A DNA stretch of 64,000 nucleotides from Cirrosporium novae-zelandiae (taxonomy: Eukaryota): NCBI GenBank assembly GCA_026023565.1, contig JAPETS010000027.1:124001-188000 (forward strand). The letters run 5' to 3'. Made by a program: the position numbers and the translations under genes. The notes below the pieces were generated by a model. It ran no database searches and was not told the origin of the DNA. It was given only the letters and a program-made list of their open reading frames with translations. Positions 43,446 to 45,383 of the stretch are shown one piece after another. Position 1 is the first letter of the stretch, and each line of letters begins with the position of its first letter.

Positions 43446-45383
43446 TTAGTTATCATGCAGCGGACCCAAAAATTCTTTACCTGCACGCTCTGGCTTCCCA
43501 ACATCCAAACCCGTCTGTCCCAATTTCTCGCTCGAGAATGCCTTCGCGTATGGGTTAAGGCGTAGTAAGACTTGTCTGTTACGAAGAGGATTCTTCTTCT
43601 GGACGGCGGTTCTCTTGGTAATAGCGCCACCCTTGACAGCACGGAGAACGGACTGGACTTCGGTGGAGTTGATGAGGCGCGAGATGTCGGAGTTGGTCAT
43701 GATGTTGGATGGAAGGAGGAAGTCCCTCTTGAGTGCTGAGGGGGCGGTTGTTGTGCCGTAGATCTTGTCGAGGGCCTTGAATGCCTCAGATGACCAGATG
43801 ATGAATCGTCCTATTTTTGTTAGAGCTTATCATGTAACGGGACTTTACGCTATTAACATACCGAGGTGGGATCCAGGGGCGAGTTGAAGGAGGTTAAGGG
43901 CAAATACACTGCATGTTTCGGCTCCCTTGATTCAAATTAGCAACGAGCATTCATCTTCATGCTTAAGCTGAAGCAGACACCACATAGTAAGGGTTATTTA
44001 AATAGACAAGAATCTCATCACTGGGAACACTGGATTTGGTTCAGGTCATCTCAGAGCCTTGCTAGTGGTGCTTGTCTCCAGTTTAAGGACATCAATGTGA
44101 AAGTTCTTACAGGAAGGTTACGGAACGCATAGACGAGTTCTTTCGAATCGACATCTGGGTTCCAGACGATCAGTGGTCCCCGTCTGGCTGTGGTCCTCCT
44201 GCCACGCATCTTTCCTTTACCGGCGCGGAGTTTCTTTGATTTCTTTGCTTTTTCGACGTCTGGGAGAGCACCGAGAGTATCTAATAGGGCAACGGCTTCC
44301 TTGGTCTTGGCTGGGCCTTTCTTCAGGTCAACAACAAGAGGGATTTCGGGGACCTTTTCGATGCGGTGGCCACGGGCGAGCACCAAGGATGGGTTAGCTG
44401 AGGCAGCGATGGCACTGGCAACTGCAAATCGTTTTTGGCCAACGTTACTATTTCATGTTAGGACATCTAGGGTCTAGAATAGAGAACAAAACCAGTATGC
44501 GAAAAAACAGAATTTAGATATTTTTGTAGAGGTCGGTGGAATGAAGGAAGGTAGGGCGAAGAGGAAGGCTTAGAGGGGGTATTATTCTTACATCTTAACG
44601 TGCCACTTGCGCCAAACCTTGAATACACCTGTTAGCCTATGTTCACAATAGAGCACGTATTTCAAGTGAGTCGGCATGAGTTCTTGACATCTAATATGAA
44701 CCTCCATCCTCATCGTTGAGTCGCAATCTTAATCAGAGAGCTTTTCAAAGTGTGGTTCCTTTGTGCCTAGGGGAATCTAAAGCCCGTTTGCAGCATCTCT
44801 GACCAAGGAAACATCTAACGGATGTGGCAGGAGATCCATATTAGGAGCATAATATGCTAGACCCCAGACTCGTTCCGACCCATCTCGAAAGTCTCGCTGG
44901 GATTTGATATAGTTGGAAAAATACCTTTGTAGGAGCGAACATTCTACCAGATCGGCACTATAGAAAAGATCAATATCCTGTTCATTTTTCTTCCATCCAG
45001 AAGTGCATTACCATATTTCCGAATGCGGCTTGACCAGCTCTGTGTGTTCCTCCACCACTGACTCTGGGAATACGTGCGACAGCTCGACCAGTTCCCCACT
45101 ATAATCTTCGTCAACTTCGTTATCTCGGCGGTTCGATAGATAGATGTAATACCGATTCAGCACTGGTTTGGTGACCAGCTTTCTCGCTCACGCAGTATGG
45201 TTGACGCTTGTTCTTTGCCATACCTGTGAGAATTAGTATTTAATGTTCGAAGGTCTATAGCTCGAACATACCAGTGTGCACATCTGAAACAATATCAGGT
45301 CGAATTGGGGCCTTGAAGACCTCTGGGAGAGGGTGAGTCTCTCCAGAGGTGCCCTGGATCGTAACGGTAGGTCGTGCACTCAT
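43446..45383 (-). CDS. RPL4: 60S ribosomal protein L4 (uL4); exons 45383-45272, 45223-45153, 45098-45012, 44957-44925, 44617-44592, 44447-44111, 43925-43862, 43810-43446
   Basis: Spliced translation MSARPTVT...[48 protein letters not shown]...[16 protein letters not shown]...[17 protein letters not shown]...[16 protein letters not shown]; all 7 introns are GT-AG. Confidence 0.97.

Follow-up and report, generated by a model that had tools for sequence, protein, structure and literature searches.

A candidate zipper-type rod in the 307-nt fourth RPL4 intron of Cirrosporium novae-zelandiae

Known structured introns and the RPL4 gene of Cirrosporium

The closest described counterparts of the intron studied here are the zipper-stem introns of yeast, such as those of RPS17B, RPL7A, and RPL28. 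Zipper stems are defined by linker lengths that fit the spliceosome (42 to 85 nt, with minima of 10 and 20 nt); they occur in 32 of 88 probed yeast introns, are common in long ones, and are poorly conserved in sequence (PMC12350175). A second group comprises the autoregulatory introns of yeast RPL22, RPS9, and RPL30/L32 and of Xenopus L1, which is RPL4, and uL4 itself has been described as controlling its own production through splicing in Xenopus and through mRNA cleavage in yeast (PMC6884704, PMC2846911). Clade-restricted structures in ribosomal-protein introns are known in fungi, and the accessible text on them names no RPL4 structure (PMC8216456). Introner-like elements of Dothideomycetes are long, stably folded, and fast-decaying, and occur in many near-identical copies (PMC3609843). 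Fungal introns also host H/ACA snoRNAs (PMC2780460, PMC8216456), and most box C/D snoRNAs of N. crassa are intronic (PMC2780460).

We compared these systems with intron 4 of the RPL4 gene of Cirrosporium novae-zelandiae, which lies in a 64,000-nt stretch of contig JAPETS010000027.1 (the window). The outer helix of this intron, helix A, has the same geometry as the yeast zipper stems. Unlike S. cerevisiae, however, the host is a filamentous ascomycete with many introns per gene, mostly of 50 to 70 nt, and the RPL4 rod, which is a prediction, is unbranched, single, and takes up three quarters of the intron. With the autoregulatory introns, intron 4 shares its place in a ribosomal-protein pre-mRNA, an intronic structure, weak splice sites, and unproductive products with early stops, but it has no identifiable uL4 site and its fold is known by prediction. 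Like the introner-like elements it is long, has a stable predicted fold, and occupies a site that lacks an intron in relatives, but it is present in a single copy. It resembles the intronic H/ACA snoRNAs in its intronic site and in its ANANNA and ACA strings; it differs from them in having neither the hairpin-hinge-hairpin-tail fold, nor a pocket 14 to 16 nt from the box, nor an rRNA target.

Cirrosporium and Xylobotryum form the isolated class Xylobotryomycetes (PMC6712537), and because of this isolation close relatives are hard to find. The spliced 364-aa RPL4 product is identical to the NCBI-annotated C. novae-zelandiae protein (P0003), and the next-best relatives reach about 70 to 75% identity over the last exon. 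We assigned splice sites from protein identity and homology, not from reads. The seven introns measure 48, 54, 54, 307, 144, 185, and 51 nt (Table 1). The earlier note had delimited a 307-nt intron with a GUAUUU donor and an AAG acceptor, followed by a 26-nt exon, and this intron is real, as the spliced product matches the annotated protein. The note had also contrasted its length with introns of about 50 nt. The length stands, but intron 4 is not the sole long RPL4 intron, since two others measure 144 and 185 nt. The gene lacks the intron that relatives have after GQK and has others nearby, a hint of lineage-specific intron turnover.

Table 1. Features of the RPL4 gene and its two structured introns, in positions of the window
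Feature	Position	Strand	Basis or remark
RPL4 (uL4) gene, 8 coding exons, 364 aa	43446..45383	-	protein identity; PF00573 and PF14374
Intron 4, 307 nt, phase 0, between K101 and V102	44618..44924	-	junctions AAG/GT at both ends
Donor GUAUUU of intron 4, weak U2	44919..44924	-	in 2 of 65 ribosomal-protein introns; fails U12 5' rule
Helix A 5' arm (outer, candidate zipper stem; 15 bp, one bulge, 2 G-U)	44875..44890	-	p 0.92-1.00
Helix A 3' arm	44660..44674	-	distal part (44666-44657) can pair with the 3' splice site instead
Helix B 5' arm (15-bp helix of the earlier note, 2 G-U)	44830..44844	-	pairing probabilities
Helix B 3' arm	44691..44705	-	pairing probabilities
Helix C 5' arm (12 bp, 2 G-U; 3 more bp beyond a bulge)	44796..44807	-	pairing probabilities
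Helix C 3' arm	44728..44739	-	pairing probabilities
Apical junction, two short hairpins (11-nt and 8-nt loops)	44746..44791	-	predicted fold
Predicted branch sequence GCUAAC of intron 4, branch A at 44632	44631..44636	-	sequence
3' end of intron 4, AAG acceptor	44618..44626	-	partner in an alternative 9-bp hairpin
Exon 5, 26 nt	44592..44617	-	skipping gives a stop right after residue 101
Intron 6, 185 nt, whole-intron rod, AAG acceptor	43926..44110	-	predicted fold

Several other intron types were considered and set aside. By inspection, intron 4 contains no internal acceptor followed by the remainder of a donor, as a stwintron would. A CAG 3 nt past the branch A was judged too near for use as an acceptor. 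Under the U12 5' rule the donor is RTATCCTT, in which one C may be T (PMC2846911); intron 4 has T at both +5 and +6 and a U2-type GCUAAC branch, and a U12-type intron was ruled out. A U11 search was blank but is uninformative on this question. None of twelve 10-nt junction motifs matched an intron start in supplement 2 of PMC2846911. An RPL4 gene with a U12-type intron did turn up elsewhere, in L172, between N89 and M90 and thus 12 codons upstream of the position of intron 4 (donor GTATCCTT, branch TCCTTTAC, AAG acceptor), in contrast to the U2-type donor and branch of intron 4. The L172 sequence (926-1178), like L175 and L176, is eukaryotic RPL4 inside a bacterial genome record, i.e., contamination.

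Predicted folds and comparison with other ribosomal-protein introns

Intron 4 folded to -95.5 kcal/mol (z -3.65), and none of 100 shuffles was as stable. In repeats, the sense strand scored z -3.86 and -3.19, compared with -1.73 and -1.68 on the antisense strand, so that the earlier description of the intron as highly structured is borne out (sense z of -3.2 to -3.9 against shuffles). The predicted ensemble is a single rod that takes up about 230 nt and contains three long helices, of 15, 15, and 12 bp; about 76 nt lie outside it. From helix A the rod continues through a looser stretch that includes a small side hairpin, then through helix B, a second loose stretch, and helix C, and it ends in the apical junction. 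Helices A, B, and C kept pairing probabilities near 1 with 0 to 100 nt of flanking sequence at both 25 and 37°C, and the branch A stayed mostly open across these flanks and temperatures (unpaired 0.92 to 0.99). Loops inside the rod in the minimum free energy (MFE) structure measured 3, 9, and 8 nt, with no tetraloop on any stem. The intron contains two complementary runs of at least 12 bp, as did only 1 of 200 shuffles.

The central 15-bp helix of the earlier note corresponds to helix B. It is a gap-free run with two G-U pairs, 14 pairs of which appear in the MFE structure (p 0.59 to 1.00). The smaller elements proposed alongside it were not recovered: the separate 5' hairpin AGACU/AGUCU had a probability of 0.0000, and the inner stems ACAUC/GAUGU and UUCCUU/AAGGAA had probabilities of 0.0004 or less and 0.0000, the bases of all three being used in the rod.

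Strand-symmetric runs of at least 12 bp held 4 G-U and no A-C pairs, and runs of at least 8 bp held 6 G-U and 1 A-C, which suggests that the rod may have been under selection on the RNA strand. We word this as a suggestion because the whole arm alignment gives 10 G-U versus 8 A-C pairs, a weak bias. In a 224-kb sample of the genome, the structure ranked 30th of 340 local-fold clusters by z, and 13th of the 121 clusters of at least 200 nt. The fold is strong, not exceptional genome-wide. Many of the clusters that we viewed were low-complexity C-rich or G-rich stretches or repeats.

For a background set, we used a small gene finder to model 16 ribosomal-protein genes and assessed each model from its translation. 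These genes (L113-L171) are intron-rich, with at least 65 introns; five merged or doubtful introns were dropped, and some first introns are missing from the set. The 65 introns retained had a median length of 66 nt, and 16 were of at least 100 nt. The background was confined to these long ribosomal-protein introns, as a heuristic intron finder run on 424 kb gave 57 low-scoring candidates that we did not trust. Sense z scores of -2.4 or lower were found in three of the long introns, namely a 513-nt RPL7 intron and RPL4 introns 4 and 6. A helix with zipper geometry was present in six, spanning 15 bp in RPL4 intron 4, 26 bp in intron 6, and 6 to 10 bp in the other four. An AAG acceptor occurred in four of the 65 introns, and two of these were again RPL4 introns 4 and 6.

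Intron 6 is, like intron 4, an imperfect inverted repeat. It folded better on the antisense strand (z -3.6 to -3.8) than on the sense strand (z -2.5 to -2.9), and its ratio of G-U to A-C pairs was 4:7, opposite to the bias of intron 4. Its donor was predicted to pair with bases that abut the branch sequence (unpaired 0.03 to 0.49 across flanks at 37°C).

The survey also yielded observations on other genes. The structured RPL7 intron, the first of its gene (L124, minus strand), had z scores of -3.3 to -4.3 and contains UGAUGA and CUGA strings; it is likely a diverged intronic C/D snoRNA, and it had no Rfam match at the gathering score. RPS20 was found on two contigs (L168 and L169), its protein and intron being the same on both, reflecting duplication or assembly redundancy. 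A TAGGGYT/AACCCT motif, which we take to be telo-box-like, lies near 45506 on the minus strand, 123 nt upstream of the RPL4 start, and recurs upstream of several other ribosomal-protein genes.

Zipper geometry, competing readings, and origin

We interpret the fold of intron 4 as a lineage-specific zipper-type rod that would compact a long intron, and we give this reading roughly even odds (about 0.5). Intron 4 would be a normal U2-type spliceosomal intron in which the central 230 nt form a single long, imperfect hairpin. Helix A, acting as the zipper stem, would loop out the bulk and leave about 76 nt outside, near the usual intron length of this genome, and recognition across the intron would then still be possible despite its length, its weak donor, and its weak AAG acceptor. 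A zipper-type rod is the most economical account of a long, weak-ended intron among 50-nt introns. Helix A falls within the published definition (PMC12350175): it closes intron nt 35 to 265 with 15 bp, the branch A is at nt 293, and the linkers, 34 nt at the 5' end and 27 nt between helix and branch A, add up to 61 nt. The poor sequence conservation of yeast zipper stems fits a lone, lineage-specific rod (PMC12350175). Also in its favor are the better fold of the sense strand, the G-U pairs in the long complementary runs, the persistence of the core helices across flanks and temperatures, and a helix A longer than the corresponding helices of the four introns outside RPL4.

Several observations count against a zipper-type rod. 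The G-U bias of intron 4 is weak, and intron 6 shows the opposite. A 307-nt RPL28 intron of C. novae-zelandiae has no zipper and little predicted structure (z -0.95), indicating that long introns here can do without one, and the rod of intron 4 is far longer than a zipper requires. This reading fits all observations, is simpler than feedback by uL4, and was absent from the options in the earlier note. We infer that the structure would form in vivo, promote splicing, be lineage-specific, and be kept at the RNA level; such retention would hold whatever its origin, be it a fold-back duplication or a decayed hairpin element.

Alternatively, the fold could serve feedback, with free uL4 or a partner binding the rod or its 5' outer strand and thereby releasing 44666-44657 to pair with the 3' splice site. 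Intron 4 retention or skipping of the 26-nt exon would then lead to early stops and nonsense-mediated decay, and intron 6 would be a second control point. We consider this unlikely. What keeps a regulatory reading alive is that RPL4 holds two structured introns (two of the three among the 16 long ribosomal-protein introns, along with two of the four AAG acceptors among 65) and that a switch closing the 3' splice site could be produced in silico. The distal 3' arm of helix A can also base-pair with the final 9 nt of intron 4, and blocking intron nt 27 to 41 flipped the model to a closed 3' splice site (-88.5 versus -95.5 kcal/mol). When the last 55 nt of intron 4 were folded alone, the 3' site was 96% paired, the highest value among the 16 long introns and one reached by 6 of 1,000 shuffles. 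Both retention and exon-5 skipping would give early stops (after residues 128 and 101, respectively), and self-control of uL4 has the precedents noted above.

However, the closed conformer lies 7 to 9 kcal/mol above the rod and would form later in transcription. It was also found post hoc, and its energy is ordinary, as 310 of 1,000 shuffles were as stable. The two RPL4 rods showed no common motif and no sequence similarity above that of shuffles, and no rRNA-like motif was found, the best sense matches being 10 nt (E 2.1). The intron is absent from 18 read-through relatives among 119 related proteins, so the circuit would have to be a recent invention. Such a recent uL4 circuit, built from two unrelated rods, in which intron 4 would toggle between a zipper and a closed AAG site while intron 6 buries its donor, is quite improbable.

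The intron may instead be a neutral relic, in which a decayed fold-back insertion, MITE, or introner-like element made or enlarged it and was then tolerated with no selected role. We likewise consider this unlikely; as an origin, it is compatible with a zipper-type rod. Intron 4 shares with introners and MITEs a long, stably folded sequence at a lineage-specific position. The whole intron is an imperfect inverted repeat, its arm alignment scoring 130 against a shuffle maximum of 111, and the position, with AAG/GT at both junctions, is a proto-splice site. Introner-like elements are long, stably folded, and fast-decaying, as noted above, and other strong hairpin repeats exist in this genome. 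Opposing this origin, neither intron 4 nor intron 6 had a second copy at an E value of 1 or less in the 31.4-Mb assembly, where the lack of a match is not proof of rarity. No target-site duplication was evident around the rod, and there was no RIP signature (dinucleotide indices of 0.70 and 1.37 versus 0.81 and 1.20 for the window). The sense strand of intron 4 is also favored over the antisense strand. Judged by its single copy, neither intron appears to be a current introner or MITE; old diverged copies would escape the search. Two strong inverted repeats elsewhere (L099, 7960-8260, and L104, 3313-3588; z about -9.7) share about 45 nt and probably belong to a MITE-like family that has no relation to the RPL4 introns.

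The distribution of the intron bears on its age. Among 119 related proteins, 18 unspliced gene calls read straight across the junction and none breaks there, and for this reason we score intron 4 as missing from these 18 relatives, consistent with a relic in that the intron is absent from every related protein that could be read. The five in-frame calls among the 18 run into an intron a few codons later. We also built a metagenome pattern for the junction that leaves out the plain Val-Trp continuation. It retrieved 91 loci of distant eukaryotes, of which 44 have an intron at the same junction and 47 read through; the position may thus be old, which counts against a relic. Both ends were found for 39 of the 44 introns, giving 19 distinct sequences of 150 to 368 nt that are GC-rich, non-fungal, and unrelated to intron 4. 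These intron-bearing loci are probably from prasinophyte green algae. The AAG/GT sequence of the site makes parallel gain indistinguishable from ancient retention.

No fungal locus with intron 4 was present among the 91 metagenome loci, the five genome-collection matches, or the viral matches, of which there were none. Three of the genome-collection matches were eukaryotic RPL4 contaminants lacking intron 4, and two were due to chance. Model R1 matched only itself in 20 sources and none of the 19 distant-eukaryote intron loci, and Rfam gave no match in the 10 such loci searched. Most of the distant-eukaryote introns at this junction (L002-L085) carry the TAGGGYT/AACCCT motif.

Vertebrate RPL4 introns host snoRNAs, and the earlier note had proposed an H/ACA-type RNA in intron 4. 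A snoRNA of either class, H/ACA or C/D, is very improbable here. The strings on which the proposal rested are present (ANANNA in the form of AUAUUA, and ACA), but the H/ACA geometry is not. Forcing the proposed H box open cost 15.6 kcal/mol (-75.8 versus -91.4). The resulting 5' and 3' domains measured 44 and 207 nt, and about 49 nt separated the ACA from the base of helix B. All three internal H-box topologies cost 16 to 34 kcal/mol. A 3' end set by the ACA would also lie 5 nt from the branch A. Under published box rules (PMC2780460), we found no hairpin-hinge-hairpin-tail fold and no bipartite 9- to 13-bp rRNA guide 14 to 16 nt from a box. A pocket scan against the SSU, 5.8S, and LSU rRNA of the same genome gave no pseudouridylation target of at least 9 bp, whereas 5 of 12 shuffles gave at least one. 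For C/D, there was no box C near the 5' end, no box D near the 3' end, and no 10- to 21-nt antisense element before D or D'. The only C-like box (nt 212) lies downstream of the only CUGA (nt 189), the wrong order, and the longest antisense run to rDNA was 10 nt, as in shuffles, and not beside a D box. Rfam had no match in intron 4 even at E values up to 5, although it seems insensitive in this lineage, being blank also on the RPL7 intron with C and D box strings.

Two side observations concern other RNAs of the genome. On the plus strand, upstream of RPL4, window positions 46030-46121 gave a weak Rfam match to the C/D snoRNA snR57 (29 bits against a gathering score of 50; E 0.17). The rDNA (L096/L093, G000:C122) has an SSU of about 2.2 kb and an LSU of about 4.2 kb, the latter compared with 3.4 kb in the model, sizes that suggest insertions, for example group I introns.

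In yeast, RNase III cleaves ribosomal-protein introns. The long, nearly double-stranded rod of intron 4 might be the precursor of another small or stable RNA, whether as a substrate of Dicer or RNase III or as a stable intronic RNA, with a role in degrading unspliced RPL4 pre-mRNA or in trans. We consider this highly unlikely; the longest uninterrupted duplex of the rod is 15 bp, and it has no tetraloop caps.

Meaning for ribosomal-protein introns

A literature search that mostly covered papers outside subscription journals listed none describing an RPL4 intron of a filamentous fungus as structured or regulated, which is not proof of unpublished status. Zipper stems themselves are already known from yeast, and RPL4 intron 4 is a further candidate member. 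If intron 4 holds a zipper stem only, a splicing principle of yeast would be extended to a filamentous ascomycete rich in introns, a result of modest interest. If, on the other hand, uL4 controls the switch, a new intron with a simple two-state RNA would have served to rebuild ribosomal-protein feedback. A recent circuit of this kind would mean that uL4 splicing feedback, known from Xenopus, had been independently reinvented in an isolated fungal class, and RPL4 of C. novae-zelandiae would then offer a compact system for how such circuits arise.
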